A stretch of DNA of 64,000 nt from Tubulanus polymorphus (GCF_964204645.1 NC_134033.1:4178231-4242230), one strand, 5' to 3'; counted from the stretch's first letter, positions 59 through 31,763 are shown. Numbers and translations: made by a program. The notes: a model not told the origin generated them from the sequence alone.

Positions 59-623
59 TGTTGTGGGGTTGCTTTCGGTTCTCCAACAATGTTGTGGAGT
101 TGAGTTTCTCAACCAATTGTTGTGGGGGCCACGTTGCGTTCTCCCCTCGTGTTGTCGTTGTTGGTTCCGATTAATCCGATAAGTGATATCCCTCTGACTC
201 CGGAATAATAACAACTCTTCTCGTGGGTCTACGTTCTTTCTTTATTTTCCCGCTCAATTCTTATTCCTTCCTACAGCTCGTATTTTTAGGCTTCTCCGCC
301 ACTCTAGCATCTCTCTCCCCCTTACTGTGCTGACCCTCCCTTTTTATCTTATTTCATGTTATTCGTGACGTATACTTCTACATATGTTATACCGTCACGA
401 GTTAATTATACTTGTTTACTTCCTAGCCATACCAGAGCTCAAGGCTGCCGCTATAACCAGCAACCCTACGCAGATAGTCACGTCACTTTCACCTATCTTC
501 TATTCAGTGTCTTGTGTGCGACGTAAGCATCTACGTAGGTTGTTTACTAACTTCAGCCACTGCCCTGAACTCTGGCTTCCCTCCCTCTATGCAAACTACT
601 AATTTATCACCCCAATAGAAACA
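59..623 (-). mobile_element. Probable 5' LTR of an LTR (Gypsy-like) retrotransposon inserted into the Polinton-like element
   Basis: On the minus strand it starts TGTTTC at 623 and ends ...CCCCACAACA at 59. After 1 nt comes TGGTGGAGAA (48-57), matching the 3' end of tRNA-Ala (PBS). Minus-strand AATAAA at 241-246 and an ATAAAAAGGG/purine-rich segment near 310-350. The HNH reading frame begins abruptly at 624. Confidence 0.6.
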
Positions 624-971
624 CATTCAGAAACACTATCTAATTTGTTGGGTTGTTCGGATGAATTCTTCAAATCATGGATAATATATCAATTCGATGA
701 TAAAATGAATATAGATAATTATGGTGAATACTTTCATATTGATCACGTGTTGCCGATTTCTAAATTTGATATGAGTGATGATTATAATAAGAAGCTAATC
801 TGGAACTGGAGAAATTTAAGGCCTTTAGAAAAGAAGGAAAACATTATTAAATCCAATAAACTAGATTTACAGTTATATTTAGATCAACTGGATAAAGCAA
901 AGACATTTGTTGAATTATGGAATAGTATTTCACAGAATCAACCGCATTCTGAGGTTTTGATCAGTGGTTAG
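624..971 (+). pseudogene. HNH endonuclease of the type common in NCLDVs and Polinton-like viruses, 5'-truncated by the LTR
   Basis: LLGCSDEFFKSWIIYQF...NYGEYFHIDHVLP...NWRNLRPL...ENIIKSNK. The frame is open back to 624 (HSETLSNLLGC) with no ATG before the LTR junction. Confidence 0.75.
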
Positions 972-1319
972 AAAGCTGGCAATTCTATTTGAGCTTTGTA
1001 TGTATATAATACATAGCTTTTGCTTACTACTAAAACATATGTTGCCAAATATATCTTGTTTTCAATTCTAAAGAATTAATTAACTTCATCATAAAGAACA
1101 TCTGTGCAGAAGTAATTAGTTTGGTCGAACGTGCGCCACGTTAGCAGTTAGAAATCAACTTTCACATACATGGTACGTATTGGATATTCTCTCTCAAAAC
1201 ACAGTTTACAGTTCTAAATCTAAATGTAAGTACCGTTTTTTGTAGTTATTATGAAGTAGGGAAACCTTTAAACATATTTAAGTATAGTAATTCATTTTCA
1301 CGATATCTTTTAGATTAAA

Positions 1320-2048
1320 ATGGAACACAAAGATCAACCAGAAATTCTAAGCCAACCAACGGATGAGGAACGATTGCTACTGGATAGTGAAACTCAGGAA
1401 TCAATAGAAATGGAGGATGAAACTCTCATAATTGACGAACAAACTTCACAAAAATTACAAGAACATTTGGACTATCATCAAGAAATGGTGAAAATTCTGA
1501 GTGATGTAATACATAATAAACAATTACCGCGCGAACTACAATTACCAAAATTACCAGCAACGCGACTTAAATTGCTGTTGGGACTCAAAGAATCGAAAAC
1601 TAAGAAAATGAGTGGAGAAGAGTTGAACGAGTTTTTAAAATCTAAATTAATCATTGACACAGGACATTTAAACTTTCCGGAAATACAAAGTGTAGAAGTT
1701 ATTTCATTTGCTGAAATTACTGATATCTTAAAAAAAAGTTATAAAACCATATTAAATAGAAAAGCAAATCACCTATGGGACCACATCATTTTCGGGGGTT
1801 ATCTAAATATAGGGTTTTCAATGTTTGATAAAGAAACTGAGGGGATTTCTTGGGGACTGTGGGTTAAAAAGAACATAGATATCAGTGCTGGTTTTGAAAG
1901 AAAACTGAGAAGAGTAGGTAGATTAATGAAATATGAAAAATTCAAAATATTAGGATTAGCATTTAGTGAAGTAGTAAGACATTTACCAGAAATTGAAGAA
2001 ATGATTGGAAACAATCCAGTAATTAAAGAATTATGGACAAAATTATAA
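1320..2048 (+). CDS. Hypothetical viral accessory protein (acidic N-terminus; C-terminal helical domain resembling DUF3102-type HTH)
   Basis: 242-aa ORF with the pattern IFGGYL...SWGLWVKKNIDISAGFERKLRRVGRL. Candidate 5'-UTR intron at 1226-1313 (GTAAGT...CTTTTAG). Confidence 0.6.
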   Translation: MEHKDQPEILSQPTDEERLLLDSETQESIEMEDETLIIDEQTSQKLQEHLDYHQEMVKILSDVIHNKQLPRELQLPKLPATRLKLLLGLKESKTKKMSGEELNEFLKSKLIIDTGHLNFPEIQSVEVISFAEITDILKKSYKTILNRKANHLWDHIIFGGYLNIGFSMFDKETEGISWGLWVKKNIDISAGFERKLRRVGRLMKYEKFKILGLAFSEVVRHLPEIEEMIGNNPVIKELWTKL

Positions 2049-2116
2049 ATTATAATACTGAAGGTCTTAGATATCAAAAATGTAATCTCGATTGTATATA
2101 TCTGTTTTAATATTGT

Positions 2117-2469
2117 ATTGTTTACTGTTAACTGTGTATTGCGTAATAACCGGTCCGATTGAACCGCTTTTCTATTGTTCTCCATTGTTCTACTATTGAT
2201 CGTTGTTAATGGCGGCGGTTGTTCTGTATTGATTGTTTACTGTTAACTAAGTGTTGCGCAATAACCGGTCCGATTGGACCGCATTTCTATTGTTCTCCAT
2301 TGTTCTACTATTGATCGTTGTTGACTGAAACAGCTGCTCAATATTGATTGGTTACATTTCTATGTTTGAATGTTGTAGTTTACAGAATAAAAATATAACT
2401 GTGTATTGCGCAATAACCGGTCCGATTGGACCGCATTTCTATTGTTCTCCATTGTTCTATTATCGATCG
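2117..2469. repeat. Three ~75-90 bp direct repeats with palindromic cores
   Basis: Copies at ~2117-2207, 2232-2322 and 2396-2469. Each carries TTGCG(C/T)AAT and CGGTCC-GATT-G(G/A)ACCG. Confidence 0.9.
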
Positions 2470-2855
2470 CTAAAATTTACATAATAAATATATGTGTTTA
2501 TGAAATAGTAATTCCACCAGTCGTTTCTTTGAATTTATTTTCAGTTGAGGATTTGATATCGAGGATCCAAAATGACTTATCTGGACAGTTATAATTACTG
2601 CTCCTATAGATAGACAATAGTAGTGAGATAATCTAAATCCTAATTTAAATAAAATATAATAAAAATTACATACCTTCAACTATCTATTATTTCTATTATA
2701 TTTTTGATATTTTCTTTTCAAAAGAGAATACTTTATATCACAAATAAAAAATACTTAAAAAACAATAACTAATACTAGAATTCTTTAACTTTAACTATCT
2801 AGTATCATTTGAAGAATACTTATAATACTATTCTTATTAAATTTCTCTAATATAA

Positions 2856-3461
2856 ATGTCTAAGAAATCGAATAAGAATAATATTAAAGTTGAAAAAACT
2901 TTGGAAGATTTAGGTCTAACAGATGATAATGATAATGTGGCAACTAAATGTGATAATAAAATTGATAGTAATATTGATTACGAGTACTATTTATATTGTA
3001 AACATCATCTAGAACTATTGATTGCTGGCGGGAAATCTAAGGACTTCTTAGGAAAAATAATAACTTTTCAAGAACTAGACTCTATGAAACCCGATAAAGT
3101 AATAAAATATTTTAAGATTTATGAAGAGTCAAGATTAGCTAGAATAAACGACTCTATAAGTGATGGTATTGTCAAATGTTATTCAAAATTATGTAACCAG
3201 TTAATACCAATTGATGATGAAAATAAATTATATAATGATTTGAAAAATGACTATTTAGTTATGACTGAATTACAAAAATGGGTTGGATACGCTTCATTTC
3301 AATTAGGATCGGTTATGACGTTGATTTCTACTGGAGTTATAACATTTTCGAACATCAAACCTATGGAATATAAATCAGGTAAGAACGAAACAGATGTACT
3401 ACAACAAAACATCGAAACAGAAAATGAATCAGAACAAAAATTAACTAAAATAAATGAGTGA
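2856..3461 (+). CDS. Conserved Polinton-type hypothetical protein with hydrophobic C-terminal segment
   Basis: 201-aa ORF with TAAATG start. GKSKDFLGK...YFKIYE...LYNDLKND...GSVMTLISTGVIT pattern recalled from related invertebrate elements. Confidence 0.7.
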   Translation: MSKKSNKNNIKVEKTLEDLGLTDDNDNVATKCDNKIDSNIDYEYYLYCKHHLELLIAGGKSKDFLGKIITFQELDSMKPDKVIKYFKIYEESRLARINDSISDGIVKCYSKLCNQLIPIDDENKLYNDLKNDYLVMTELQKWVGYASFQLGSVMTLISTGVITFSNIKPMEYKSGKNETDVLQQNIETENESEQKLTKINE

Positions 3462-3801
3462 TGGCGTTAAGAAAAAGGTTAGATCCGAGAAACAAATTAT
3501 ATGGGCAAGAGAATTAGGTAAAAGATCTTCAGAATTAAAAAAAGCTAAGAAAAAGAAATTAACCGATATAAATGAATCACCTGGTATTGATTCAAATAAT
3601 AATCCATCTAATTCTTCTAATAGTGGAAGAAATAATTACTTATATATTACAATTGGGTTAATCACAATTATTATATTATCCGGTGTAATATATAAATCAA
3701 AATTCAAATCCGATGATAAAGATGATTCTAATGATAATAAACCCATCATACCAGAAAATAAATCAAATGAAAATAAATCTAAAATATTATTAATGGATTA
3801 A
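3454..3801 (+). CDS. Small single-pass membrane protein with basic N-terminus
   Basis: 115 aa with TM segment YLYITIGLITIIILSGVIY. TAAATG start overlaps the upstream ORF. Confidence 0.7.
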   Translation: MSDGVKKKVRSEKQIIWARELGKRSSELKKAKKKKLTDINESPGIDSNNNPSNSSNSGRNNYLYITIGLITIIILSGVIYKSKFKSDDKDDSNDNKPIIPENKSNENKSKILLMD

Positions 3802-3804
3802 AAT

Positions 3805-4893
3805 ATGATGAAAAAAGAACAATATTTAAGAGAGTTATATTATAACCCAGAAAGTGAAGTATCATATTCTAACGTTTCAGAATTATGGAATAAAATTAAA
3901 TCTGATAATAGCAATATAAAATATAGTGAATTAAAATCATGGTTACAAAATCAACCCACATATCAAATTCATAAAAAGATGGATAAAAAATATTTAACAA
4001 GAAAAGTAATGGTTTCATATATTGATCAACAATGGCAAGCTGATTTAATTGACATGAAAAACTTAGAAGAATATAACAAAGGATATTTCTGGATACTAAA
4101 TGTTATAGATATATTCAGTAGATACGCATGGAGTATCCCGATTAAAAATAAAACTGGTATAGAAGTGACAAATGCTTTTAAATCTATATTTAAAGAAGCT
4201 ATTCCAGATAAGATACAATTTGATGAAGGTAAGGAATTCTATAACAAACATTTCAAAAAACTATTATCTGATAACGATGTAGAATATTTTTCAACACATT
4301 CAGATAAAAAAGCATCTGTTATAGAAAGATTTAATAAAACATTGAAAACTAGAATGTGGAAATATTTCACCGCTAATGAAACATATAAATATATCGATGT
4401 GTTAGATGATTTAGTGAAAGGTTATAATAATTCTAAACATGGTTCTATAAATATGAAACCTATACAAGCTAGAAAAGAAGAAAATTCAGAAATAGTTTGG
4501 AATAATTTATATGGAGCATTTGTTACACATGATTTTGGAGAACCTAAATTTAAAATAGGACAACATGTTAGAATTTCTAAATATCGAAAAACATTTTATA
4601 AAGGTTATACCCCTAATTTTACTGAAGAAATATTTAAAATTAAAAAGATAATATTAACTAAACCATTTGTTTATAAATTGTTTGATTTAAAAGATGAAGA
4701 AATATTAGGTTATTCTTATGAACAAGAATTATCATTAGTACCAAATCCAGATGAAATAGAATACAAAATAGAAAAAGTATTGAAAACAAAAACTCTTAAA
4801 GGAAAAAAGTATTCTTTGGTGAAATATAAAGGATACGATGATAAATTTAATGAATGGATTTTATCTAGTAAAATTAAAAGAATAAATGAATAA
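3805..4893 (+). CDS. int: Retroviral-like (rve) integrase with C-terminal chromodomain
   Basis: DDE motifs WQADLIDM, IQFDEGKEF and KASVIERFNKTLK. Chromodomain YKIEKVLK...LVKYKGYDDKFNEWI. ORF intact. Confidence 0.95.
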   Translation: MMKKEQYLRELYYNPESEVSYSNVSELWNKIKSDNSNIKYSELKSWLQNQPTYQIHKKMDKKYLTRKVMVSYIDQQWQADLIDMKNLEEYNKGYFWILNVIDIFSRYAWSIPIKNKTGIEVTNAFKSIFKEAIPDKIQFDEGKEFYNKHFKKLLSDNDVEYFSTHSDKKASVIERFNKTLKTRMWKYFTANETYKYIDVLDDLVKGYNNSKHGSINMKPIQARKEENSEIVWNNLYGAFVTHDFGEPKFKIGQHVRISKYRKTFYKGYTPNFTEEIFKIKKIILTKPFVYKLFDLKDEEILGYSYEQELSLVPNPDEIEYKIEKVLKTKTLKGKKYSLVKYKGYDDKFNEWILSSKIKRINE

Positions 4894-5497
4894 AGATTTA
4901 TTTATATTTGAACCGCATAATATGTTAGTTACTGGAGTTACGAATTGTGGTAAAACACATTTCATATTAGACTTGTTAGAAACTATTTATAAAAATCATT
5001 TTGATAATATAATATTATTCTGCCCAACTTATGAAATGAATGAAACGTATAATAGAGATATAGTTAAGATAAAAAAGTTTATTATATTAGACCCCAAAAC
5101 AGTAAAAGAAAATTTAGATAATTGTATAAAAATTGCATTAGATATTTATAAAGGATCTAATACATTATTTATTATCGATGATTGCGCAAATTTACATGAT
5201 TCTAAAATTAGAGAAAGCGAGTTATGTTATTTAGCTTTCTCTGGTAGACATTTTGGGATAACAACATGGGTTTTAAATCAAAAATATAATTCAATTGTTA
5301 AAGATTTTAGAGAGAATATAAGATTTCTAGTTTTATTTTATAACAAAGATAGAAAATCTATGCAACAATCATTGGAAGAAAATCAAATTATACCTACTGA
5401 ATTACATGATGAATATATGAATAAATTAAAGAATAATAAAGGTTCAAAATTATTACTGAGATTACAATTTCCATATGAATATAAATTTATAAAATAA
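4886..5497 (+). CDS. A32/FtsK-HerA family DNA packaging ATPase
   Basis: Walker A GVTNCGKT, Walker B LFIIDD, arginine finger SGRH and conserved Q (LNQ). ORF intact. Confidence 0.93.
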   Translation: MNKDLFIFEPHNMLVTGVTNCGKTHFILDLLETIYKNHFDNIILFCPTYEMNETYNRDIVKIKKFIILDPKTVKENLDNCIKIALDIYKGSNTLFIIDDCANLHDSKIRESELCYLAFSGRHFGITTWVLNQKYNSIVKDFRENIRFLVLFYNKDRKSMQQSLEENQIIPTELHDEYMNKLKNNKGSKLLLRLQFPYEYKFIK

Positions 5498-5520
5498 CTA
5501 TTTGTATACCTATGTATTAG

Positions 5521-5606
5521 ATACCCTAATACCTAATACCCTAATACCTGATACCCTAATACCTGATACCCTAATACCCCAATACCTGATACCCTATTAG
5601 ATACCT
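5521..5606. repeat. Short tandem repeat (ATACCCTA/ATACCTG units) between convergent genes
   Basis: ataccctaatacctaataccctaatacctgataccctaatacctgataccctaatacccc... Confidence 0.85.
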
Positions 5607-5664
5607 TAAATAATTAAAAACCCCTTTTTTATTTACTATTATTTTATACAATTTTCAACCTTTA

Positions 5665-6612
5665 TTATTCGAGTTTTATATAATCAATTTCTGAATCACT
5701 TTCACTATCAGACGCTAACATCATATTTAAATGCTCTACCGAATCTACATCAACATCTTTATAATTTTTTTTCACCTTTTTCACCTTTTTTACCACACCA
5801 CCAATAGTTGTTTCATTGTTGCGCTTCCTTATCCTTTCTATCATATCATCAAAAGTTTCTTCTTTATGTTTCATAGAATCTTTAATATCATTATGTTTAA
5901 CTGTAACTATATCATCATGTGGGCGTATGGCACCATTTTCATTATCATCTTTATTAGTGTTTGCTCCTAATATTTCATTTACAGTGTTTGATCCTAATAT
6001 TTCATTAGCATCGGTTAAATCTAATTCATCTTTATTAGGTGTTGCTAATAATAAATCTTCATATATTTTTTCACCATTTACTTTTTTATTTGAAACAAAT
6101 TTTGTAACATATCTAAATGGGTGTTCTATAAATTCTCTTAAACCAACACGTTCTATAACATTAGTAATATGTGAATTTGTATTTATATGTTTATTCCAAT
6201 TTGATGGAGCGTTTGAAAATTCACCTTTACAATAATCACAATAATTTCTATTTTTACTAACATTTAATATTATTGCCTTATTATATGTAGAAGGTATTAT
6301 ATTATTTGATGTAGAGGGTATTACAGATGTAGAAGGTATTATGTTATTAGATGTAGAAGGTATCACATTATTAGATGTAGAAGGTATCACATTATTAGAT
6401 GTAGAAGGTATTACATTATTATCAATTACATTACTTAAATTATCAACAACACCACTTTTATTATTATCGATTTCTATCAGTTTAGTTTTATAATTTTTAA
6501 AAATAGGATCAAATATCAAAGCTATATTACAAGGTATTACATAATATAAACCATCATTATTTTCATGTGTATCGATGTATGGAATATGTTTATATACTTT
6601 ACCTCCTTCCAT
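5665..6612 (-). CDS. Hypothetical protein with VIPSTSNN tandem repeats and a C2H2-type zinc finger
   Basis: 315 aa with ~6 copies of an 8-aa (24-bp) repeat at ~6285-6420, and CDYC...NKHINTNSH. TAAATG start. Confidence 0.75.
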   Translation of the reverse strand: MEGGKVYKHIPYIDTHENNDGLYYVIPCNIALIFDPIFKNYKTKLIEIDNNKSGVVDNLSNVIDNNVIPSTSNNVIPSTSNNVIPSTSNNIIPSTSVIPSTSNNIIPSTYNKAIILNVSKNRNYCDYCKGEFSNAPSNWNKHINTNSHITNVIERVGLREFIEHPFRYVTKFVSNKKVNGEKIYEDLLLATPNKDELDLTDANEILGSNTVNEILGANTNKDDNENGAIRPHDDIVTVKHNDIKDSMKHKEETFDDMIERIRKRNNETTIGGVVKKVKKVKKNYKDVDVDSVEHLNMMLASDSESDSEIDYIKLE

Positions 6613-6644
6613 TTATTATATATATTTTTATTAAAGTTAAAATT

Positions 6645-7887
6645 TTAATACATAACACTATCTAATTGTGAATTTACAATATTTAATTGCGCATCAGATA
6701 ATATATAAATATGCATTTTAAAATTTTTGATTCCTTTTTTCTTTGTCATGAATAATTGTATTCCATCTTTTGTATTTTGTAGTTTTTTTCCAGAACCATG
6801 TAATGAATTATCCTCTGTTGTTCTAAAATCTAACCATAATGCATATTTATTGCCGGTATAATAATCAATTTGATTAATATTACAATTTTCAAATGATTTT
6901 ACTTTTTCATTCATAAAATGTTTTTAAATTTCTACCCATTGATCTATCATTCTCATTCCTTGACAAAATATTTTATTTGCTATTCCTTCGATAGTTATTT
7001 CTACTTTTGTTATTTCAGGATTATAATAATTATCAACATTTATTGCGCCATTAGTATACGTTCCAATGGTAAAAAATATTAATATACCTTTAATAGATCT
7101 TCTAGGGAAGTTAATATTCTCATTTATTATTTCATCATTTGCATTAATAGTTACAGTTTTAAATTTATCAATATAATCATATAATAATGAAAATCCTTGA
7201 TTGTATTTAGTTTGAATTATACTTGAAATATTTTCATCAGTTACTGTATCATATTCTAAACATATATTCGATAATTTATAACTCATATCTTTAACAACGC
7301 TAGATATTACAATTTCATTTACAGGAGCAAATGTTATTTCGAATATAATATCTTCTTGAATTGCGTATTTATATAAAGGTGCATTATTATTTATCAATTC
7401 AAAGTCTAATGGAATTTTATATTTGCTTCCATATATACTTTTTATCAATTTATCTACATCATTTGTTAATATTGCGCTATTAGCTTCTGATCTTAATTTA
7501 TTTTGGTTTTCTGATTGGATGCCTTGAAATATCATATTATTTCTATTTTCTTAACCATAAATCTTTATAGTGCATAAATAAATTATAATCATCTAATGAG
7601 AAAACTGTTTCTGGACCAATCTTTATTGTTAACTTTTTAATCAAATATCTTCCAACATTATCAACAACATAATTATTATTATTACCGATTACTTTTATAT
7701 CAGCTGATAAATAAATACTATTTGGAACATAAAAAGTATTTTGTGTTAATCTCGGAATTCTAACATATAAAGTTTCATCGGGATTAATATTTGAAGGGTT
7801 ATGAATAATTATATGATGTGATCTTTCTGCTTTAATAGCATTAGATATTCTATGATTCTTAGAAGGATTGATATAACTCCCACTCAT
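6645..7887 (-). pseudogene. Major capsid protein (double jelly-roll), disrupted
   Basis: Three ORFs join into one MCP (NPSNINPDETLYVRIP...YKDLW; FQGIQS...IPLDFEL...ISLEYD-like NICLEYD...YNPEITKVEITIEG; KYALWLDFRTTEDNSLHGSG...DAQLNI). Frameshift near 7545-7550 and in-frame TAA at 6924-6926 (WVEI*KHF). Confidence 0.85.
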
Positions 7888-7941
7888 TTATTTAACAAAA
7901 AAATTAATTATTTATTTTTTGATATTTTTTGATATCATGGT

Positions 7942-9516
7942 TTACTTGATATTTTTTGATATCATATTCACTAACCCAAAAATAATTGCACTTACAACTG
8001 TAATTAAAAATAAAATAATATGTTCAGCAGCAAAGTTAATAATGTTTCCTGCAGATTTCAATATAAAACCAACAATTGAAGCAATAACTCCTGGTAATGC
8101 TGCAGCAGATTTTTTAGATAGTTCCCATAAATATTTTGCTAATTTCTTTAAACCATCTTTAACTTTATCTTGTATAGAATTATTACTTGGAGGTTTATCT
8201 GGTTTATTAGGAGTGGGAGTAGGAGTAGATTTTAAAGCATTTGATATAGCTAAACCTATTGTTGTAAATAACATAGTAACAGCTGTTAGAATTGAAAGAA
8301 TTGTTATTCCTTCTAATTTAAATAACAATTTTATTCTATCTTTTAATGATATTTCAGAATTTGGTTTAATCAACAAATCTTTAAAAATAACTTTTAATCT
8401 ATTTATATTATAATCATATGATTTTAATAATAATTTAATTTCTTCTTTTTGTAATTCTATGTTATATTCTAAATCATCAATTTCTTTTTCTAAATATGCA
8501 TTTCTTTTTTTAAATTCAATTTCTTCAATAACTTTATTATCTCTATCTAATTTTAGTTGTTCTATTTCTTTATTTTTATCAGTTCTATCTTTTTCTAAAA
8601 ATCTAATTTTAATATCTCTTATACTTTTATCATGTGTAATTTTATCAGATGCAAGTCTTATACTAATAATTTCTTTAATTGCTTTATCAGAAAATATATC
8701 TAAATCTTCTAATTCTTGATCTGTTGCATCAAGTAACCCATTCGGTAAAAGTTTTTCAATTGGAACTTTATTTGATTTAAGTTTACTAGTTTTGGAAGTT
8801 TTATTCCGTAAGTTATCAAAACGTTTTTCTAATTGTGATTGACTTAAATCATTATCAATTTGTTGAGTGTCTCTTCTCGATGTTTCGGGTGTTGAAGATC
8901 TTAATTTATCTCTATTCTCTTCCATTTCTGTTTCTAAATTATTATCAATTGTTTCAAATAATTCATTGATTCTTTGTTTAAATACTCTTTCATTTTTAAT
9001 AATTTCTTCTTGTGTTACATCTTCTATTTCATTACTATTTCTTATTCTTTTAATTCTAGATAGTAATGAGTCAGACTTAAGCAAAGTTGATTCTGCTAAT
9101 ATTTTGTTTTGTTTTTTATAAGAGATATCAATATAATAATCATCTTTCAAACGATAATAATATTCACCATCTAAAAACTTTAATTCTTTTACTAAAAGTC
9201 TGGCACCTCTATCATTTATATTATATCCAGAATTTTCAAATACATGTTTGAAATTATAAATATATTCATTATATTCTAAATTTTGTTTTACTAAATCTGG
9301 ATTTTCATTTTCAGTAGGTATTCTCGATCTAGTTCTTCTATCAAATTCATCTGTTGATTGACCTTTAGAACCACTATCTGCTAAATTAGAATTATATGCT
9401 GATTCATCATCATTATCAATTTTAGCACCTGCATCATTATAATCATCATCAATATATCCTTCATTATCATTTCCCATGTCATCCAATGGAATATTTTCTA
9501 CACCTTCTACATCCAT
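7942..9516 (-). CDS. Coiled-coil protein with C-terminal hydrophobic/amphipathic helices (putative membrane-active virion protein)
   Basis: 524 aa with an acidic N-terminus and long heptad region. Hydrophobic segments GITILSILTAVTMLFTTIGLAI, ALPGVIASIVGFIL and IILFLITVVSAIIFGLV. Confidence 0.75.
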   Translation of the reverse strand: MDVEGVENIPLDDMGNDNEGYIDDDYNDAGAKIDNDDESAYNSNLADSGSKGQSTDEFDRRTRSRIPTENENPDLVKQNLEYNEYIYNFKHVFENSGYNINDRGARLLVKELKFLDGEYYYRLKDDYYIDISYKKQNKILAESTLLKSDSLLSRIKRIRNSNEIEDVTQEEIIKNERVFKQRINELFETIDNNLETEMEENRDKLRSSTPETSRRDTQQIDNDLSQSQLEKRFDNLRNKTSKTSKLKSNKVPIEKLLPNGLLDATDQELEDLDIFSDKAIKEIISIRLASDKITHDKSIRDIKIRFLEKDRTDKNKEIEQLKLDRDNKVIEEIEFKKRNAYLEKEIDDLEYNIELQKEEIKLLLKSYDYNINRLKVIFKDLLIKPNSEISLKDRIKLLFKLEGITILSILTAVTMLFTTIGLAISNALKSTPTPTPNKPDKPPSNNSIQDKVKDGLKKLAKYLWELSKKSAAALPGVIASIVGFILKSAGNIINFAAEHIILFLITVVSAIIFGLVNMISKNIK

Positions 9517-9532
9517 TTACATAATAAAAAAA

Positions 9533-10922
9533 TTAAAATTTAAAATATAATATTCCTCCGATTACAATTCCTATACAAGTTATAGCTAATTTAGTATTTT
9601 CATGTGATTTATTATCATCATTTAGTTTAATTATATCATGTTGAATTTTATCAGTTTTTATATCTTCTGATGTATTGTAATCTTTTATTTTAGAATCATT
9701 ATCAAATTTAATATTCTTAGTTTTAGTTTCTGTTGATTGAATGTGTTTTTTATTTTTTTCACCTTCCATTAATTTTGGAGCAGTAATAATCTTTTTATTT
9801 ATATCATTTAATCCAAATGAATTATTTATTGTTGCAGTTTTAATTAGATTATTATAACCAATTATGTTTCCCATCTTTAATAATAAATCATTAGAAATAA
9901 TTAATAGATTAGGACCTATACAATAATTAAGTCTTACATGAGATTTATCTAAATAATTTTGATATCTTATAATGTTTTCTGGAATCGATCTATTTTTATC
10001 ATTATGTATGGAATCTTCAAATAAAACTTTAAATTGTTTTTGTGTATCAAATGATGTATTTAAATTTCCTATTATTGGGGATCTTGTTTCAACTTGTGAT
10101 CCTAGAATACAAATCAAATAAGTTCTAATAGATTGATTTATTCTTTCTATACCTGATTTAGTAAAACCTTCACTATTTTCTAAAATAAAATAAACCCAAC
10201 CATTATTGTTTTCTTGTTTTAAATTATCATAAAATTTTGGTAATTTATTGAAATTTAATGTTTCTAAATCCTTTGTTTCTATTTTACCATAACCTAATTT
10301 TTTATTATAGATATTATAAAAACTATTAGATGGTATGGGAAGTGCACAATATTCTGCAATCTTTTTAGGGCAAGGAAGTGATCTTATTGTTCCAATTTTT
10401 GTTCTAAAATCAGAATTATTTATATCTATATTAAATTCATTACAAATTTTATAAAACTTAGATAGATTAATATTATTATCTAATTCTTTGAAATACCTAG
10501 ATCCTGGTAAAGCGCACTCTAATTCATTTAATATTATTCTGATTTGAAAGTATGTATGAAATCTAAATAAACTTTGAATTAATTTATATTTAGAATTATT
10601 CAAATGATCATTCCAACTAATTCCACATCCTGTTGTTGCACAATAAACAGCAAAATTTAATTGGTTCTGCCAATACTTCATATTAGATTTTAATAACCAT
10701 TGTTTTTCATCTTTCAATTTTTTAAAATTAATCAAATATACATGAAATATATTTTCCATCTTTGCATTAAAATTATTAGTTTCAGTAACATAAATTTCTA
10801 AATTAGTTAATGAATCTAAAACTTCATTTCTATATGTAATATCTTTATTAAAATCTATTGCTGGAATATTATATTTAATTGATTTATTATATCGGAAAGT
10901 TTTTTGGAAAACTATCTACCAT
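9533..10922 (-). pseudogene. Conserved Polinton-type protein with C-terminal TM anchor; +1 frameshift near the start
   Basis: YWQNQLNFAVYCATTGCGIS...FRFHTYFQIRIIL...ILGSQVETRS. The true start is TAAATG at 10922 (MVDSFPK). One extra A in the run at 10900-10905 separates it from the frame of the 408-aa ORF. C-terminal LAITCIGIVIGGILYF. Confidence 0.75.
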
Positions 10923-10939
10923 TTATATAACTAAAAAAA

Positions 10940-11374
10940 TTAATAATTTATTAATTCTTTTAATAATTTATCTTGTTCTTCAACTGTTATATGACCATTC
11001 AAACTTATTATATAATCTAGTGTGTTCTTTAATTTATTTATTTCTTTTATATTAGTTTTAATTTTTTCTTTATTACTTTTTATATTTAATTTTGAACTTA
11101 TACCAGTTAAAACACTTGAACTTAATCCTAATACACCAATTGATATAGCTAAAGGTGTTATTGGGCTGAATATTGCTAAAAATGTTATTACAGAACTAAT
11201 TGTAACCGAACCACTTATAATCAAATAATATATAATTTTACTTTTTAAATATTTTTTCTTTTTTATCTTTAAGTCACTTTCAAATTCTAATATTTGTTTT
11301 TCTAAATATGTTTTTAATTTAGTTTTATTTATATCATGAGGAATAATATCAATACTATCAACTTTATCTTCCAT
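10940..11374 (-). CDS. Two-TM membrane protein with flanking coiled coils
   Basis: 144 aa containing IIYYLIISGSVTISSVITFLAIFSPITPLAISIGVLGLSSSVLTGI. TAAATG start. Confidence 0.75.
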   Translation of the reverse strand: MEDKVDSIDIIPHDINKTKLKTYLEKQILEFESDLKIKKKKYLKSKIIYYLIISGSVTISSVITFLAIFSPITPLAISIGVLGLSSSVLTGISSKLNIKSNKEKIKTNIKEINKLKNTLDYIISLNGHITVEEQDKLLKELINY

Positions 11375-11393
11375 TTATTTAGAATAAAAATTA

Positions 11394-11811
11394 CTAATTA
11401 GTAAACTTATAAGCAACAAATATAACAATAACAGTTCCACCTAAAATCCATATTATTTCATATTTCTGTTGTTCTTTACTTGGGGTATAATAATCTGATA
11501 ATTTAGGTTTGTATAGATGTAATTTTTCTTTATTGGTTACCGCGTTATATAAACTCATTGCATCATCAACTGATTGAAAATATCTGTGTGAAATCTTCTG
11601 ATCATATAATTCTTTATTGATGTAATCCATATAGTCTTGTCTCTTTTCTCTATATTCTTCTGCAGCTTTATTGTATTTCTCTAACGCTATGTCTTCTTTG
11701 TTCTCCTAATGAACTATTTTTATCAATATGTTTAAATAAATAACCACCACCAGTAAATGCTAAAGCGTTAACAATTGCTGATCCTATAATAGTTATAATT
11801 GCAGAAGCCAT
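11394..11811 (-). pseudogene. Small membrane/coiled-coil virion protein, frameshifted
   Basis: TAAATG start at 11811 gives MASAIITIIGSAIVNALAFTGGGYLF...EQRRH. A frameshift near 11690 leads into IALEKYNKAAEEYREKRQDYMDYIN...IIWILGGTVIVIFVAYKF. Confidence 0.75.
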
Positions 11812-11836
11812 TTATTTAGCAAAAAAAATTATGCAT

Positions 11837-12058
11837 TTATATGGGAGGAATATATTTTTGTTTTTCCAAATAATCAATAGTTAAATTAGATAAAGTAACT
11901 GCTAATGTTAATTTTAGAATATCATTGATATCAAATCTATCAACATTAACACTTCCCATTTTGAATACTTTTTTTAATACCATTGAATAACCAACAGTTC
12001 CAACTGATAGTAATGCGCCATTATATAATCCAGTTATTATCCACTTATTATCACTCAT
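11837..12058 (-). CDS. Small hydrophobic protein
   Basis: 73 aa with two hydrophobic helices, ending DYLEKQKYIP. TAAATG start. Confidence 0.7.
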   Translation of the reverse strand: MSDNKWIITGLYNGALLSVGTVGYSMVLKKVFKMGSVNVDRFDINDILKLTLAVTLSNLTIDYLEKQKYIPPI

Positions 12059-12418
12059 TTATTTATCAAAAAAATTACTATCATCAAAATATTTAGTTAA
12101 CTTATTTATGATTATTTCAACATTTATTTCATTACTAGTTTTATGATTATCATATATTTCAATTATTATTTTTTTAATATCATCGATGATAAAATCTTCA
12201 TCTAATTCATAAAATCTTAAAGATTCTCTAATTAAATTAGTAATCTTTTCTACATTTAAAGTTTCTTTATCTATTGTTGTTTCATACTCAAATGTTGTTT
12301 CATTAGAAAATACAATATTTTTGATATGTGTTATTACATCATTAATATTAAATTTCATCTCTTTCTCACGTTTAAAATCAAATCCAAAACATATACTCGG
12401 TCCAACAGTTATATTCAT
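12059..12418 (-). CDS. Hypothetical protein
   Basis: 119-aa ORF packed in the gene array, TAAATG start. Confidence 0.6.
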   Translation of the reverse strand: MNITVGPSICFGFDFKREKEMKFNINDVITHIKNIVFSNETTFEYETTIDKETLNVEKITNLIRESLRFYELDEDFIIDDIKKIIIEIYDNHKTSNEINVEIIINKLTKYFDDSNFFDK

Positions 12419-12434
12419 TTATATATCAAAAAAA

Positions 12435-13190
12435 TTACTCTCTACATCTTATAACTAATTCATATATCACAGGAAAGTTATTTAAATCAATTAAGTATCC
12501 ATTATGATTTCTTATTTCTAATTTAAAATTATTAAATTTAGGAATGCAAGGTTTAAAATCACATTCTGTTAAATTATAATTTATTTGAGTTCCAAATTGT
12601 TTAACATTTTTTAGCGGTAAAATATTTAGTATACTAGAACTACAAATTGTTTCTTTAGTTGCTTCGAAAGTTTTTGTAGGCTCGATTAAATTGCAATAAA
12701 TATAAAAGTGTGTAAAAGGTATTATATTTGAGCTGCCTTCTGCGTTTCCAGTAACTGTAAGTGGTTTAATTCCTAACATTTTAGCCAGTGGTTTGTTTAC
12801 CATAAATTTATGTTGTTCATTAGATATCTTTATTCTTATTTTATTAGTACTATCAATTTTATTAAATTTAATTTCAAATACAGAACTACCCCCGATTTTC
12901 AACCGAGCTCTTCTATTAATTTCCTGCGCTAATGATTCTAAATTATATAATCCTGGTTTTAAAAATATATGAAACCATTTATCTTTATTTCTCATATAAA
13001 TCATAAACCCTCTATGTTCAAAAGTTTTATCCGATACATTGTAAAAAGAATTACATAAACTTATATTAACTAATTTTAAATCTACACAATTCTTAAATTC
13101 TCTATCTAATTGTACTAGTAAATTATGAGATTTATAATTTGTAAGCCTTCTAGAATCAACAAATATTCTGTATTCTTTTAATTCCGCCAT
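12435..13190 (-). CDS. Minor capsid protein (penton, single jelly-roll)
   Basis: IFVDSR...NSFYNV...PGLYNLESL...LAKMLG...FYIYCNLIE...LEIRNHNGYLIDLNNFPVIYELVIR pattern typical of Polinton mCP. Confidence 0.8.
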   Translation of the reverse strand: MAELKEYRIFVDSRRLTNYKSHNLLVQLDREFKNCVDLKLVNISLCNSFYNVSDKTFEHRGFMIYMRNKDKWFHIFLKPGLYNLESLAQEINRRARLKIGGSSVFEIKFNKIDSTNKIRIKISNEQHKFMVNKPLAKMLGIKPLTVTGNAEGSSNIIPFTHFYIYCNLIEPTKTFEATKETICSSSILNILPLKNVKQFGTQINYNLTECDFKPCIPKFNNFKLEIRNHNGYLIDLNNFPVIYELVIRCRE

Positions 13191-13207
13191 TTATTTTACA
13201 TATTTTC

Positions 13208-13549
13208 TTATTCGAAATCTATTTCATGGTGCCCTTTTTCATTCTTACCTTTGTATATGAAATAGAAATCTCCAGAACATAATTCTTCTAGATCTTCACT
13301 TGATAATCTATGAAATCTATCTGGTAAATAAGTTCTGAATTTATGTGTATTTCCTTTTAATCCTTCATATTCTAAATGAATTACTAATTTATCTCCATAT
13401 TTATTAGTAATTGTTTCAATGTTAGTAATTAAATATTTCTTGTGAATTGTTAACTCAGTTAGTTTTTTAAATTTATAATCTACAGATTTGACGCTTGAAG
13501 TATCTTTAATTCTATCTAAGAATTCATTGTGTACTTGTTTACTCTCCAT
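13208..13549 (-). CDS. Small beta-rich protein next to PolB, possible OB-fold ssDNA-binding protein
   Basis: FKKLTEL...KYLITNIETITNKYGDKLVIHLE...RTYLPDRF. The function is inferred from position and pattern only. Confidence 0.55.
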   Translation of the reverse strand: MESKQVHNEFLDRIKDTSSVKSVDYKFKKLTELTIHKKYLITNIETITNKYGDKLVIHLEYEGLKGNTHKFRTYLPDRFHRLSSEDLEELCSGDFYFIYKGKNEKGHHEIDFE

Positions 13550-13577
13550 TTATTATATAAATTTTTATTGAAATTGA

Positions 13578-16500
13578 TTAACACGTTAGAATCCTTTTCA
13601 TAATTTCATTTTCTTTTGTTTCTTCTCTTTTGAATTTTATATATTCATCTAAATTGCAACCATAGGCGACTGTGTGGATTCCATCATCTAAAATATATCT
13701 TTTATCATCAAATGGATTTAGACTTATCTTCTCTATCTCTTCAATATACATTTCATGATCTTCAGATCTTAAACATTTCATCTTATGTTTTCTAACTTCT
13801 TCATTAAATATACAATTGATGTAATCTTTGAAATGAATATTCTTTTCTACTACACTTTTGGTTATTCCTTTTAACTTTTTAGCTTCATGTTCTTTAGTTT
13901 TATATGAATACATTTTAGATCTAATACCTATGAACTCTATCATTTCTTCACCACCTAATTCATCTTTGAATTTACCGGGAACTTTTTTATTATCATTGCT
14001 AAACAATTCATGATCTTTAGGATAGTTACTGAAATCAAAATGGTGTTTTAATATTTTTAAGTCTTTTGTTATGTTATCACTTTTTATCTTTAATATATAA
14101 CTGTCAGTATCTAGATATAATATTTCTATATTTTTTTCTCCAAAATTGGGTTGCAATACATTATAATAGAATTCATACATCAATAGCTTTGAAATTTCTA
14201 AAACTGCAGCTCCAACATAAATAGGTTTATTGAACTTCATAGAAGTTCTTTTTAATTTAACTGCAGCTAAATTTTCATCGAATATTCTGTTACCTTTGAA
14301 TTTCGGATACGATTGTAAATGTCTAATTCTTTTACCATTACTAACTAACTCAATATCATTTCTATTTCTTATGTTTTCACATGTTTTTCCATAGAACGCA
14401 TTATTCATCAGTTTAAAGTAATCCTTCTCAAAATCAGTTTTAGATTTAGTTCTCTGTGTAGTATTAAAATCTATATATTTTTCTAACCACTTAGATTGAT
14501 TAAATGAAATATATCTATGTACTTTTTTTAATATCATTCCTTGATTCAAATAAAACTTCAACATTCTATAATGTACTACATAATTATATTTATCTTCTTG
14601 AGTTACCATTAACTTTTCAGTATGAATATGATTATCGGGTTTAATTCTTTTTTGATAATTTGATAATTCTTCATGTTTAACAGTTTTATGTTCGGGACAA
14701 TATGCTAGATTTCTAGATTTGAATTTAATATTTTCAGGGTATTCTAAATCTACAACGAAGAAGTAACCAGTATCTGAATCATCTGCAATATCTAGGATTC
14801 TTTTCTTCCAATCAAATTTATCAATTTGTAAAACTTCAGTTATTTCAAACATCCCATAAGGTTGTGGTTCCATCATTGCCCAACCATAAAGGTTATTTGC
14901 ATCTATATATAATAATTTATATCCAGGATTATCATTTACATTGAAATATCTATCACCCAATACACCTGAAACACCTCCTCTTATAGATTTTTCAAATAAT
15001 AGTAATTGATCTATATTTGTTAACAAATCCATTTTTATATTTGTAAATTTTAATCCACAATCCCATGTTAATCCTGGTGATGAATAACAATGACAAGGAT
15101 CAATGTTAAAATATTTTAGGTTTACATCTCTAAACCTTTCGAATATATCGGTTAATAATAATACATCTGATTTTAAATATAAATCTACTAATTGTCCATG
15201 ATTTTCTATTTCAAAATGATTCCAAATATTCAATGTTCTATTATATACTTCATCTTTAACATATTCATTTTTTAATTCATCATAGAATTGTTCTTTCAAT
15301 AATTCAGTTATTTTAAAATCATTATGATTTTTATAGAAAGAATATGGAATTGCACCTTTATATCTCATTAATTTAAAATCATCATAATTTGGGTAATATT
15401 CTTTTAATATCTTTAATTCATCATCAACTAATGATTTTGATAAGTTATCTAATGAACTATTTAAAAATCTATATGAATCTATAAATCTTAGACAACCAAA
15501 TTGGAATGATATATAATTCTCAGATGTTTTAGCTAACATTCTAAATTTATAAGTTGGTATTTTATCTTTTGATTTATTTGAATTTAATATTTCTATTTCA
15601 TTATTAATTTCTTCTATTTTATGACACAGTTGTTTGATAAATAAATGTGCATCATATCCTGATAGATTATGAAATATAACTGGTACAAAGTTAATTTTCT
15701 TAGCTTGTAAGTTACAATTCTCATGTGCAGCGCCTCTAAACTTTCCATTCAAATGATCATGGTCTCTTACTTTTTTATCTTTATAATTAAATATCTTTTC
15801 ACAATAATAACATTTATCTGCAAACGCAAATACTTCGTTATCTTCTTCTATCATTATAATTTCTATATTTGTATTCAATAATTTACTAAATCTTATTTCA
15901 TATTCAATTAATAAGTCACAAAAATGATTGATAACATTTTCATTTCTATAATGATAATATTCACTTTCAATTAGTTCTGGATAATCAGATTTTATATATA
16001 ACCCGAAAGCAGCAGCTGATTGATGAATCTTTTTAATAGTATTTGTTTTTGGTGGTTCTTCTGAATAATCACTTTCATTAGAATTTAATTTCTTTCTTTT
16101 ATAATATATATCTTTTCTATCTTTATCTGTTAATTCTTTATTTAATGATTCAAAATCTCCATATATTACAAATGGTACTTTATTTTTGTAATCATATTTT
16201 TTGAATTCTAATATTTTATCTTTTTCATTTGGTAAAACTAATTTACAATAATCATGATTATCACATAGTTGTTTATGATTTAATAATGCACCTTCAGTTC
16301 TGAATTTATGTAAACATTTTCTACATAGATATATTTTATTATCAAAATCATTTTCTGATTTAAAAAATAAATCGATTTGTTTAATCCACATGTAATGATT
16401 CTCATAATATAGTATATCTATAACATCATTTGAATCATAATCTTTTGATAGGTATAAAGGTTCTAATGTATAATGTTAAATATTATTTCCTTTTGTATTT

Positions 16501-17609
16501 GGTAATTTAATTAAATCAAATACATTTATCTTTAAATTATTATCTCTTTCTATTTTTGGAATATTTTTAATTCTAACAGGATACTTATCTATCTTATAAT
16601 TATTTTCAAATTGTTTATAATGAGTTAATCTAAAACTATGTGTAATATCTTCTGTTGGATGTAAACAACTTATTATAGCCCATATAAAACATTTATTATC
16701 AAAATTTTGTATATTTATTACACCATTAGTTTTAAATGGTAATTTAATATAACTTGTTCCATTTATACTATCATCTTTATAATATGATAAATTATTTTCA
16801 TCAATTGGTTTTGATTTAGTTAACTTATTATATTTTGTGTTATAAACATGTAAAGTTATAAATATTATCTCATCAAATATTAAACCAGATCCTTCAAAAT
16901 ATTTCTCTTCTATTTTAGTTTTTACTTCATTATAACATTTATTTAATTTATCATCTATATGTTGTTTAGATATAATATGTTGTGAATGAGAATTTATATT
17001 ATATATTGGTTTATCTTCAGATTTTATAAACTTTACTTTAACTGATATACTAATTTTAGGATATTCAACATCTGTAATTATTTTTATTATTTCTTTCATA
17101 TTTTCTAAATGTTTTTTATTTTCTTCTAATGTTTTTCCTTTATGAAATTTAAACTCGATAGCTGCTGGACCAATATCACTTTTAAATGCTTCGGTTATCT
17201 CTATATCTTTTTTATTATCTAATGAATTAATATAATTTCTTACATCTTCCATGTATGGTCTTTTATTGTTTAATTTATTTTTTATTCTTTTAATTGTCTT
17301 CTGTTTCTTATCATTATCTTTATCAAAATAATCTTCACCTAAAATATCATTATTCTTATTTCTAATATGACTTATAGATTTTAAATGTTCTTTATAATAT
17401 CTTTTATCACTGAATGATTGATTACATGTATCACATTTATATGTTTCTTTTTCATTCTTTAATTCTTCTAATTTAGTTTCTAATATATCATCCTTATATT
17501 CTAGTTTCAATTTATTCTCTAAATGTGTTATAGTTTTATTGTGTCTTGCTTTTTGAGACTTGTCTATATCGATATTACATGTTGGGCAGTAGTATTTATT
17601 TGCTTCCTT
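13578..17609 (-). pseudogene. polB: Protein-primed family B DNA polymerase polyprotein (ZnF - terminal-protein region - vOTU-like - exonuclease with EndoVII-like insert - polymerase), with one nonsense codon and a probable lost start codon
   Basis: Exo YGDFES, FHNLSGYD, YLKSDV; Pol YIDANNLYGWAM, KLMNNAFYGK, YLDTDS. EndoVII-like CYYC...VRDHDHLNGKFRGAAHENCNL. ORFs 16476-17510 and 13578-16391 are in the same frame, separated only by TAA at 16476-16478. The frame is open to AAG at 17607-17609, which aligns with the ATG at 30638 of the related element. Confidence 0.93.
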
Positions 17610-17689
17610 TTTAATACTATATTTTTTATTAAAATTGATTTTAGAAGTTCAATGATTTAAATGTTATTCATATATGTGAATATTTTAAG

Positions 17690-18096
17690 AGTAATAGGGG
17701 TTTAGTTGTTTCATATCAAAGGTTTAATGATCGAGTTCATTAATAACAAAATATTAAAAGTAATTAAAAAACTATAATATATTTTCATAACCGTGTGTAT
17801 TTCAGTTGAACAATAGAATAATTATTATCATTTGAATATATTTGATTATATAAATTTGTGTATTGTAATTAAATCAATTGGTCGCGGAGCGGAGCGGTAG
17901 CGAAGCGGAGCGACCAATTGATTTAATACAATATGCTTTTTATATTATTAATATCTTAGAATAAATATTTAGTTTTAATATAAAATACACACGGTTATGA
18001 AAATGTATTATAGTTTTTTAATTACTTTTAATATTTTGTTTTTTAATGGGCTCGACCGTTCGACCTTTGGTATGAAACAACTAAACCCCTATTACT
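17690..18096. repeat. Terminal ~407-bp imperfect palindrome (fold-back) of the Polinton-like element
   Basis: 17690-~17800 is the reverse complement of ~17985-18096. Inner stem TTAAATCAATTGGTCGC / GCGACCAATTGATTTAA surrounds a GC-rich apex. Confidence 0.95.
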
Positions 18097-18604
18097 TATA
18101 TCAACAGCTGAAATTATGTTCTAATTCAAAGGTCTATCAACTAACTATTCTAACCTAACCTATTTATTCGGCCTACCCATTCAGGCTAGGGTTTGGGGGT
18201 AGGGAGGGGGATACTGAAATAGAGAGACATGTTATACAGGTCACACCGGAATTCTTCAGTCACTCTGTCATCATCATTCAACTTCAGGTTCAATCTTCTG
18301 TGACTAGGGGGTCTTGTTCTTCTCACTGAAGTAGAACATACAGGCCGTACCTGAATCGGGCCACTCTGTTGTGTGCTGGGGGTGAAGACACGTACTTTTC
18401 TCAGCGATGACCCTGAAATGGTCATGTTTATTTCAAGTTAAATATTTACATAATAGGCGTTGTCTTATAAAACAATAAATTTGAAAGAAACGGAAATTCT
18501 GAAAAAAGTAAAAAACCTGAAAATAGAGAGAAACCCATGAATAAAAGAAGCATGAAATACAGGATCCTGAAATAAAGATATTAGACATAAGTAATAAACA
18601 ACCT

Positions 18605-30154: not shown

Positions 30155-30485
30155 AGTAATAGGGATAATAGGCTTTCAAGCCAAAGGTCGAACGGTCGAG
30201 CTCATAAAAAATGAAAATTATGAAAATAATAACAATTTCTACTTGAATTAGTCACGAAACTCATAAAAAATGAAAAATAATTCTCACACACTCGAATTTA
30301 TTTTTCATTTTTACTCGCTAGAAAAAAGTGTGAGTGAAATAAATTCGAGCGCGCGAGAATTATTTTTCATTTTCTATGAGTTTCACTCCTAATTCAAGTA
30401 GAAATTGTTATTATTTTCATGTTTTTCATTTTTAATGAACTCGACCATTCAACCTTTGATATGAAAGCCCATTACCCCTATTACT
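30155..30485. repeat. Terminal ~331-bp imperfect palindrome of the mini-element
   Basis: 30155-~30302 is the reverse complement of ~30337-30485. Confidence 0.95.
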
Positions 30486-31078
30486 CTTAAAATATTCATA
30501 TACATGAATAAAATATATATATGAATAACATATAAATTGATAGATTATTCAATATAAAAGTCTGAGTGAAATAATTCATATTTAAAAAATTGAATATTTA
30601 TATTTGAATGAGTTTTAATAAAAATTTTGTTATAAAAATGAAGAAAGAAGAAGAAGAACCCAACTTTGAAATCGAAATCAATGAAAACAATAAATCATTT
30701 TCACAGTTTTACATTAAAAATTATATTTCAGTCACAAATTTAGTGTCCGCCAGACATTATAAAATTGAAAACATTACTATGATTAATCAACTCTTTTATT
30801 AATGATAAGTGTAAATACATAATTGAATATGATTTATAATTTTCCAAATATTTATGATAAATCTGTTAGATAAATAGATATTGAAACAGAAATATATATG
30901 ATAAAACTATTTATATTACTTTCTTGGCAAGAATCTTGGATTCTTACTCGTACGTCTAGTACATAGATATATAAATTAGTTTTATAATAATAAAAAACAT
31001 AACATTATTAATCTAGATATAGAAATAGTTATAATATTATCTATTTTTATATTTTCAACCAATTTAACAATCTATTGC

Positions 31079-31381: not shown

Positions 31382-31419
31382 TTTTATAGTCAAAATATAT
31401 GAAATTAAAAGATGCTGTT

Positions 31420-31605: not shown

Positions 31606-31763
31606 ATCACTTTTCCCCGTTGGGATGAAACCATCAGTTTATTTAAGAGAAAAATTAAACAGTTCATAAAATATTTGCTAGTTTTTAATTAAATATTTTA
31701 TAATCATTTTAAAAATATTAAACTTTTAAATGATTAAATCAAATAACAATTAAATTTACAACC

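Follow-up and report, generated by a model that had tools for sequence, protein, structure and literature searches.

Candidate poxvirus-type late promoters precede the genes of a Polinton-like provirus in the Tubulanus polymorphus genome

We examined a stretch of 64,000 nucleotides from Tubulanus polymorphus (GCF_964204645.1 NC_134033.1:4178231-4242230), hereafter called the window. Positions ~620 to 18100 are occupied by a decayed, multi-copy Polinton-like provirus residing in this animal genome, with a GC content of ~22% compared to 35-40% for the DNA around it. Almost every gene of this element begins with the sequence TAAATG, usually with a run of T residues a short distance upstream. Because the two parts are held at a fixed spacing, match the base profile of poxvirus genes, appear independently of GC content and gene arrangement, and are conserved throughout a lineage of relatives, a promoter function for the T-run plus TAAAT is well supported by these comparisons. 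We propose that the signals are late promoters, and that they are probably read in trans by a poxvirus-type helper virus.

A two-part signal at the starts of element genes

A sequence-only reading that preceded this work stated that 13 of the 15 genes between 2856 and 17609 begin with TAAATG. This count is correct, as TAA directly precedes the ATG at all 13 of the listed starts:

TAAATG starts, + strand: 2856, 3454, 4886
TAAATG starts, - strand: 6612, 7887, 9516, 10922, 11374, 11811, 12058, 12418, 13190, 13549

The T-run contexts quoted for 7887, 11811, and 12418, and the open reading frame (ORF) endings ...INE* (two) and ...NFFDK* (one), are likewise present as written.

Within the element, TAA precedes 37 of 591 non-start ATGs (6.3%), and at this background rate the binomial probability of TAAATG at 13 or more of 15 starts is 2e-14. 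In the rest of the window, TAA precedes 59 of 1618 ATGs. The upstream tract also distinguishes true starts, with TTTT located between -18 and -10 at 7 of the 13 starts versus 1 of 37 non-start TAAATG sequences (Fisher p=1.2e-4). When the two parts are combined as AATTTTT-N4-9-TAAATG, seven matches are found in the 64 kb, each at a gene start, against an expectation of 0.35, and none of 100 shuffled sequences reaches seven.

Three of the starts (6612, 13190, and 13549) have an upstream tract that is A-rich rather than T-rich, and this class bears only a loose resemblance to vaccinia intermediate promoters. At 12058, the TAA of the motif doubles as the stop codon of the upstream gene. The genes headed by 7887, 10922, and 11811 are broken in the window copy, and we treat these positions as true starts because they are homologous to intact genes of a related locus (L001).

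The integrase and PolB genes had been named as exceptions. Both indeed lack TAAATG in the window, but neither is a firm exception. The integrase ATG is directly preceded by TAAAAT, and the frame of the protein-primed DNA polymerase B (pPolB) is not a fair exception because its 5′ end is damaged in this copy; the pPolB frame of one relative (L032) begins with TAAATG. An additional ORF at 1320, absent from the earlier list, begins with TAAAATG in the context TTTTAGATTAAAATG. The motif had also been tied to morphogenesis genes, a restriction that does not hold, since nonstructural genes carry it as well.

Conservation of the signal among relatives

The packaging ATPase of the element has 314 homologues. 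To follow the motif beyond the window, we used 80 metagenome loci pulled by ATPase alignment, of which 77 have a scorable start. Genes were defined as protein clusters and starts as the first ATG, with fragments dropped. Near-duplicate loci are counted in the family totals below, and 12 of them were removed before the base profiles and the gene-arrangement count were made.

TAAATG is found at 200 of 212 homologous starts in 58 loci and at 1 of 101 starts in the other 19. This split is not a product of the 50% threshold used, because the 33 loci with at least four scored genes lie at the extremes (23 with a TAAATG fraction of at least 0.71, 10 with at most 0.12). The motif is a lineage-wide trait of the family. 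The upstream T is similarly conserved, occurring at -14 in 180 of 209 starts compared to 84 of 250 non-start TAAATG sequences (p 1e-31), and the T frequencies at -15 through -12 are 57, 85, 70, and 73%.

The low GC content of the element might suggest that the motif is simply a by-product of AT richness. We have ruled out this explanation, whose probability is negligible, on the basis of the 6% background within the same element, the excess of T-run plus TAAATG matches (7 vs 0.35 expected), and the distribution of the motif by base composition. In successive bands of rising GC content, TAAATG-type loci number 8/10, 19/26, 29/32, and 2/9; a locus with 20% GC (L017) carries the motif at 0 of 4 starts, whereas another with 39% GC (L037) carries it at 7 of 7. 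A comparison of AATAAA density (1 per 229 nt in the element vs 1 per 1000 nt in host ORFs) was left unused as confounded by GC content.

The motif could instead act in translation, whether as a site for stop-start reinitiation on polycistronic RNA, as an in-frame guard stop, or as a host Kozak context. The tight packing of the genes would accord with such a role, as would the 21 of 217 starts, including 12058, at which TAA is the stop codon of the upstream ORF. However, the remaining 196 starts are uncoupled from any upstream stop. Among divergent starts, which lie back-to-back with no same-strand neighbor, 68 of 71 retain TAAATG and 63 of 71 have T at -14, and this argues against stop-start coupling. 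Furthermore, the triplet before the ATG is TAA in 200 of 212 cases, TAG in one, and TGA in none; when the ATG shifts by a few bases, TAAA is kept no more than 12 nt away (10 of 12 exceptions); and the second element stays fixed at -14. A translational signal therefore seems very improbable.

Searches for further family members returned little. With the patterns used, no relative of the ATPase or of the major capsid protein (MCP) was found in IMG/VR, and none was found in a phage collection. GTDB yielded one related contig, which was assigned to an archaeal bin and is probably mis-binned.

Comparison with poxviruses and other large DNA viruses

In vaccinia late promoters, TAAAT plus G is described as overlapping the start codon, and the 10th nucleotide upstream is a conserved T (PMC11980589). 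The element carries both features, with TAAAT plus G over its start codons and a conserved T ~10 nt upstream. We derived a poxvirus profile from 28 poxvirus loci, in which 10 of 24 gene families have TAAATG in at least 60% of members. In these families, T occurs at -14, -13, and -12 in 62, 77, and 58% of starts, versus 85, 70, and 73% in the element family, and the two profiles correlate best at an offset of 0 (0.71 for T, 0.54 for all bases). In a paired-motif scan that covered 9 of 64 IMG/VR parts, a poxvirus had the most TAAATG starts among 120 loci (11/16, or 9/13 without pattern-forced starts). A strict single-motif IMG/VR scan gave 90 loci with 38 TAAATG starts among 416 and no helper candidate.

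It is also conceivable, though in our judgment unlikely, that the late promoters are read in trans by a helper that is not a poxvirus, for instance a giant virus of the irido/pitho-like or asfar/ego-like kind that uses a TAAAT initiator, or a cytoplasmic linear element resembling yeast pGKL2. Some giant-virus bins contain T(-13)...TAAATG, and 201 of 939 starts (21%) in 79 iridovirus-like loci are TAAATG. Yeast virus-like elements are reported to have a TAAAN initiator and poly(A) leaders (PMC6211774), and our search of the invertebrate-poxvirus literature found no mollusc or annelid poxvirus by title. Against such helpers, the iridovirus-like capsid genes use TCTTG...ATAAAA with variable spacing and no sharp T peak, only 4 of 78 iridovirus-like MCP genes begin with TAAATG, and the profile correlation is low (r 0.14). 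By these sequence measures, iridovirus-like genomes fit worse than poxviruses. African swine fever virus (ASFV) late promoters are described as containing TATA (PMC5294985, PMC7163114). In addition, pGKL promoters require an ATNTGA box 20-40 nt before the start codon, and none is prominent in the -30..-1 base profile, although no search was aimed at this box.

Two other observations belong to this comparison. First, environmental iridovirus-like capsid genes (L321-L402) have in common an ATCTTG-N5-7-ATA(T)AAAA signal that precedes the ATG. Second, TTTTTNT, the early terminator motif of poxviruses, is scarce in coding strands (3 vs 8.4 expected). We rejected this scarcity as evidence because the motif is equally scarce in loci that lack TAAATG (10 vs 21.7) and because A-runs, too, are scarce.

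Sister lineages with a TATA-type signal

Some relatives without TAAATG carry a different signal. TATA occurs within 22 nt of the ATG at 9 of 11 starts in L021, 8 of 12 in L023, and 8 of 8 in L058, compared to a background of 4-14%. In L021 and L023, a T core lies 12-15 nt upstream, and A(A)TTTTCTG-N7-8-TATA precedes most genes (9/11 and 8/12) at 47-49% GC. This combination recalls the ASFV late promoter, given as TATTT...TATATA (PMC5294985), and also the iridovirus-like capsid signal. The same three loci encode VLTF3-like proteins (L021:5082-5576, L023:6543-7049, and L058:5749-6387). The match to Pfam PF04947 has E 1e-16 in L058 and is below the cut-off in L021 and L023. A three-sequence VLTF3 profile gave no match, with a best E of 3.5, when run against the window and all TAA-type loci, among them contigs of 11-12 kb.

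On an ATPase tree comprising 35 of 62 rows, the promoter label changes four times, and a single TAAATG clade is rejected (approximately unbiased test, p 2.7e-5). The distribution of TAAATG and TATA on this tree therefore suggests repeated switches of promoter type. Several deep branches are weakly supported, and gene swapping could be another source of the pattern. A GC-rich branch (L065-L068), which has an SF1-helicase-type replication gene, carries neither start motif nor VLTF3.

These sister lineages bear on the possibility that transcription of the element takes place in the nucleus and relies on host RNA polymerase II, with an element-encoded or host factor producing a poxvirus-like pattern by chance. 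The VLTF3-like proteins demonstrate that some family members encode factors of their own, several conserved genes lack an assigned function, the left end of the element lies outside the window, and nuclear integration is needed for high copy number. However, the VLTF3 profile has no match in the window or in TAA-type loci. RNA polymerase II initiates at an established distance from TATA, and with a TATA-like box lying 3 nt from the ATG, the start site would fall within the ORF. AATAAA is also frequent in coding strands, at the level expected (62 observed, 62.2 expected). We thus consider transcription by host RNA polymerase II to be quite unlikely.

A proposed helper-dependent life cycle

If the poxvirus-type reading is correct, the T-run centered at -14 followed by TAAAT over the start codon would constitute a late promoter. 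A poxvirus, or a virus closely related to one, would supply upon co-infection the RNA polymerase and the late factors that recognize it. Transcription would begin within TAAAT, and polymerase slippage would add a 5′ poly(A) leader that renders the otherwise leaderless mRNA translatable. Leaders made by slippage are reported for vaccinia and for yeast virus-like elements (PMC6211774). The element would remain silent in the host nucleus until the helper enters the cell, replicate by using its own pPolB, assemble particles containing several membrane-type proteins in or near the cytoplasmic factory of the helper, and re-integrate via its rve integrase. The swap to a TATA initiator in sister lineages, three of which have a VLTF3-like factor, would correspond to a change of helper.

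The earlier suggestion of helper-read late promoters thus divides into two parts. Its promoter component is upheld by the spacing, the poxvirus profile, and the conservation described above. That the element depends on the RNA polymerase of a helper can reasonably be inferred from the gene content, because neither a polymerase nor a transcription factor was detected among the 20 window ORFs, with the left end lying outside the window.

Several points weigh against a poxvirus helper. The T peak of the element family is at -14 (the 11th nucleotide), 1 nt further upstream than the -13 of poxviruses, and the poxvirus profile represents 10 gene families from related chordopoxviruses. Among 132 unforced starts from 23 mixed giant-virus-bin loci, 15 are TAAATG, 13 of these 15 have T at -13, and one such locus has TAAATG at 5 of 9 starts; the architecture is therefore not exclusive to poxviruses. 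In relatives, the late-type signal is also present at polymerase and integrase genes, leaving no clear early class. The element yielded no gene of poxvirus origin, a poxvirus RNA polymerase subunit was detected neither in the window nor among 63 scanned proteins of relatives, and the left end beyond the window could encode a factor of its own. Moreover, polintoviruses are reported to be expressed in coral RNA-seq data (PMC11131425), the coral elements being unmatched to the present family. Finally, we infer both the transcription steps and the helper itself from sequence.

We speculate further, and more tentatively, that this integrating, membrane-protein-rich Polinton-like family, which would be widespread though little described, consists of poxvirus virophages, with TAAAT lineages depending on poxviruses and TATA lineages, some with their own VLTF3, on asfar- or irido-like viruses. 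If so, promoters would record the helper used by each lineage, with at least four switches.

Relation to known systems

Mimicry of helper promoters is itself already known from protist virophages. Mavirus and its EMALE relatives in Cafeteria, Gezel-14T, and the Polinton-like viruses (PLVs) of Tetraselmis are similarly integrated small double-stranded DNA viruses with pPolB/rve-type modules and no RNA polymerase, and a helper-type promoter whose type varies by clade precedes most of their genes (bioRxiv 10.1101/2025.10.09.676808, 10.1101/2022.07.28.501842). As described there, those systems differ in being experimentally proven, in having protist or algal hosts, and in having helpers of the mimivirus order, whose motifs are TCTA (late) or AAAATTGA (early). 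In contrast, the window element resides in an animal, carries a motif of the poxvirus TAAAT(G) type, and has a predicted helper. Helper promoters are also reported for a pacmanvirus transpoviron and Loki's Castle virophages.

PLVs have been reported in entomopoxvirus occlusion bodies, and these are likewise proposed to be parasites of invertebrate poxviruses (Barth et al. 2024, PMC11296320). Compared by description, they differ from the window element in that they have an adenain-type protease and mostly a phospholipase, with no rve integrase detected. That paper contains no promoter analysis (0 matches for promoter, motif, or TAAAT).

Maverick/Polinton elements, equivalent to adintoviruses (Polintoviricetes; PMC8502044, bioRxiv 10.64898/2026.06.19.733378), share with the window element pPolB, an rve-chromodomain integrase, an A32 ATPase, a double-jelly-roll capsid protein, and integration into animal genomes. 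The window element differs in its several membrane-type genes, its terminal hairpin palindrome, an MCP with only a weak Pfam Capsid_N match, and its lack of a detected protease. An adenain-type cysteine protease is described as core in Polintoviricetes group 1, whereas none was found in the 20 window ORFs or 63 scanned proteins of relatives, the left end again being outside the window. The element may belong to the Octocorallia/Hydrozoa/Bivalvia group that bioRxiv 10.64898/2026.06.19.733378 places near Aquintoviruses.

Vaccinia late and intermediate promoters (PMC11980589, PMC5294985) resemble the candidate promoters of the element in TAAAT plus G over the start, a T peak ~10 nt upstream, and an A-rich minority class, but the predicted promoters of the element have their T peak 1 nt further upstream and occur on almost all genes. 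Yeast pGKL1/2 are also AT-rich linear pPolB elements with a TAAAN initiator, served by a poxvirus-related polymerase from a partner element, but they have an upstream ATNTGA box and neither capsid nor integrase (PMC6211774).

The signal is, in our view, real and family-wide, and it would represent helper-promoter mimicry that is new in being animal-hosted and poxvirus-type. Our searches of the open-access literature turned up no description of poxvirus-type promoters for any Polinton or PLV, and passages from coral, adintovirus, and egovirus papers and from two 2026 classification papers contain no promoter data. Animal Polintons could be autonomous viruses, transposons, or parasites that exploit larger viruses, a question with almost no handle, and a 20-nt signal would offer a cheap and decisive one. 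The signal predicts poxvirus-type viruses in invertebrate groups where such viruses are barely known, and the all-or-none switch between TAAAT and TATA within one family would make helper specificity readable from sequence. If the more tentative virophage reading is true, each TAAATG element in an animal genome would flag an undiscovered poxvirus of that host group.

Gene content and ends of the element

The element carries the hallmark genes of Polintons, namely those for pPolB, an rve integrase, an A32-like ATPase, and a double-jelly-roll MCP. The MCP, F2, F8, and pPolB genes are broken in the window copy, and five element genes encode hydrophobic segments. The features are as follows:

642..971, +, HNH-endonuclease-like remnant (tblastn to L005 HNH-like protein 48%, E 3e-26; Pfam HNH E 0.0055)
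1320..2048, +, ORF of 242 aa, no Pfam family
2117..2498, three imperfect 115-nt direct repeats
2856..3461, +, conserved family gene F1 (TAAATG start, T at -14/-13)
3454..3801, +, small gene with one hydrophobic segment (TAAATG start overlaps F1 end)
3805..4893, +, rve integrase with C-terminal chromodomain (Pfam rve, PF00665, E 1.8e-9; Chromo E 7e-5)
4886..5497, +, A32-like packaging ATPase (Pfam Pox_A32 E 7e-12; TAAATG start overlaps integrase end)
5665..6612, -, 315-aa protein with weak zinc-finger match and 24-nt repeat (TAAATG, A-rich upstream)
6645..7887, -, MCP, broken in the window copy (73-77% to intact L001 MCP)
7942..9516, -, conserved gene F4, 524 aa, three C-terminal hydrophobic segments (T-run + TAAATG)
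9533..10922, -, conserved gene F2, C-terminal hydrophobic segment, frameshifted near start (T-run + TAAATG)
10940..11374, -, two-transmembrane SLATT-like protein, weak (Pfam SLATT_fungal E 0.0035; T-run + TAAATG)
11394..11811, -, conserved hydrophobic gene F8, frameshifted in the window copy (T-run + TAAATG)
11837..12058, -, conserved gene F6, 73 aa (T-run + TAAATG)
12059..12418, -, 119-aa protein, function not assigned (T-run + TAAATG)
12435..13190, -, probable minor capsid (penton) gene, aligned with five relatives (TAAATG, A-rich upstream)
13208..13549, -, 113-aa protein (TAAATG, A-rich upstream tract)
13578..17609, -, pPolB region, interrupted, 5′ end damaged (Pfam DNA_pol_B_2, PF03175, E 2.5e-15; 36% to L058 pPolB)
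17690..18096, imperfect palindrome of 407 nt at the element right end (one long hairpin, -122.6 kcal/mol, z -24)

The intact L001 homologue of the MCP is predicted to adopt a double-jelly-roll fold, to which the MCPs of iridoviruses and chloroviruses are the closest matches (model pLDDT 81.5; Foldseek E ~1e-15 to the MCPs of Singapore grouper iridovirus and Paramecium bursaria chlorella virus 1). These two rank above Sputnik and mavirus, although such a ranking is not a clade test. For F2, a model of the L001 homologue (pLDDT 62) was without match, with no Foldseek hit at E<=0.001 and a best Z of 3.6, and ESM Atlas gave no usable match for two proteins. We take 12435..13190 to be a penton gene on the basis of motif resemblance rather than a folded model, and the 113-aa product may be a single-stranded-DNA-binding protein by resemblance.

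A 15-nt tandem repeat is located at 5506-5596, between the converging ATPase and zinc-finger genes. The terminal hairpin is AT-rich except for a GC-rich branched tip, and an internal palindrome lies at ~9080-9360 in L001. A hairpin is not the type of end expected with protein-primed replication. L001, a close relative, also encodes a deoxynucleoside kinase (10343-10981; Pfam dNK E 2e-31) behind the same T-run plus TAAATG, which would fit a requirement for nucleotides supplied outside the nucleus; its closest IMG/VR match (37% identical) gives no pointer to a helper.

On the left, the element is cut by another repeat at ~617, where 450 loose read ends accumulate. Its true left end lies outside the window, because other copies continue differently before this point. 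No repeat joining both element ends as terminal inverted repeats was found in the window, the left end being interrupted at ~617.

Copy number and neighboring DNA

In a genomic run that carries the species label of the best-matching run, read depth is 114-1127 on the element versus 12-17 at the lowest-covered host positions listed, and most element reads are 90-99% alike. The depth and divergence together indicate at least tens of diverged copies. No RNA run was among the listed sequencing runs that contain the element; a possible RNA run has almost no reads on the element and none on the host-gene stretch either, and thus is uninformative.

The element is flanked by animal DNA that contains GPCR genes and retroelement debris. 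Positions 40172-53979 hold tandem LDLa-LRR-7TM host genes with CUB and lectin-like parts, which we presume to be GRL101-like; this family appears much expanded, because read depth there is high, and genes of this type suggest a mollusc, annelid, or similar invertebrate. A second AT-rich piece at 30150-32258 contains a palindrome of 340 nt, and its outer arms show 76-82% similarity to the right-end hairpin of the element. The palindrome is followed by a 1.65-kb unit with 156-nt inverted repeats, each opening with an A-rich TTTTAATAAAAA...TATAAAAATG signal, and the whole piece is possibly a nonautonomous satellite.

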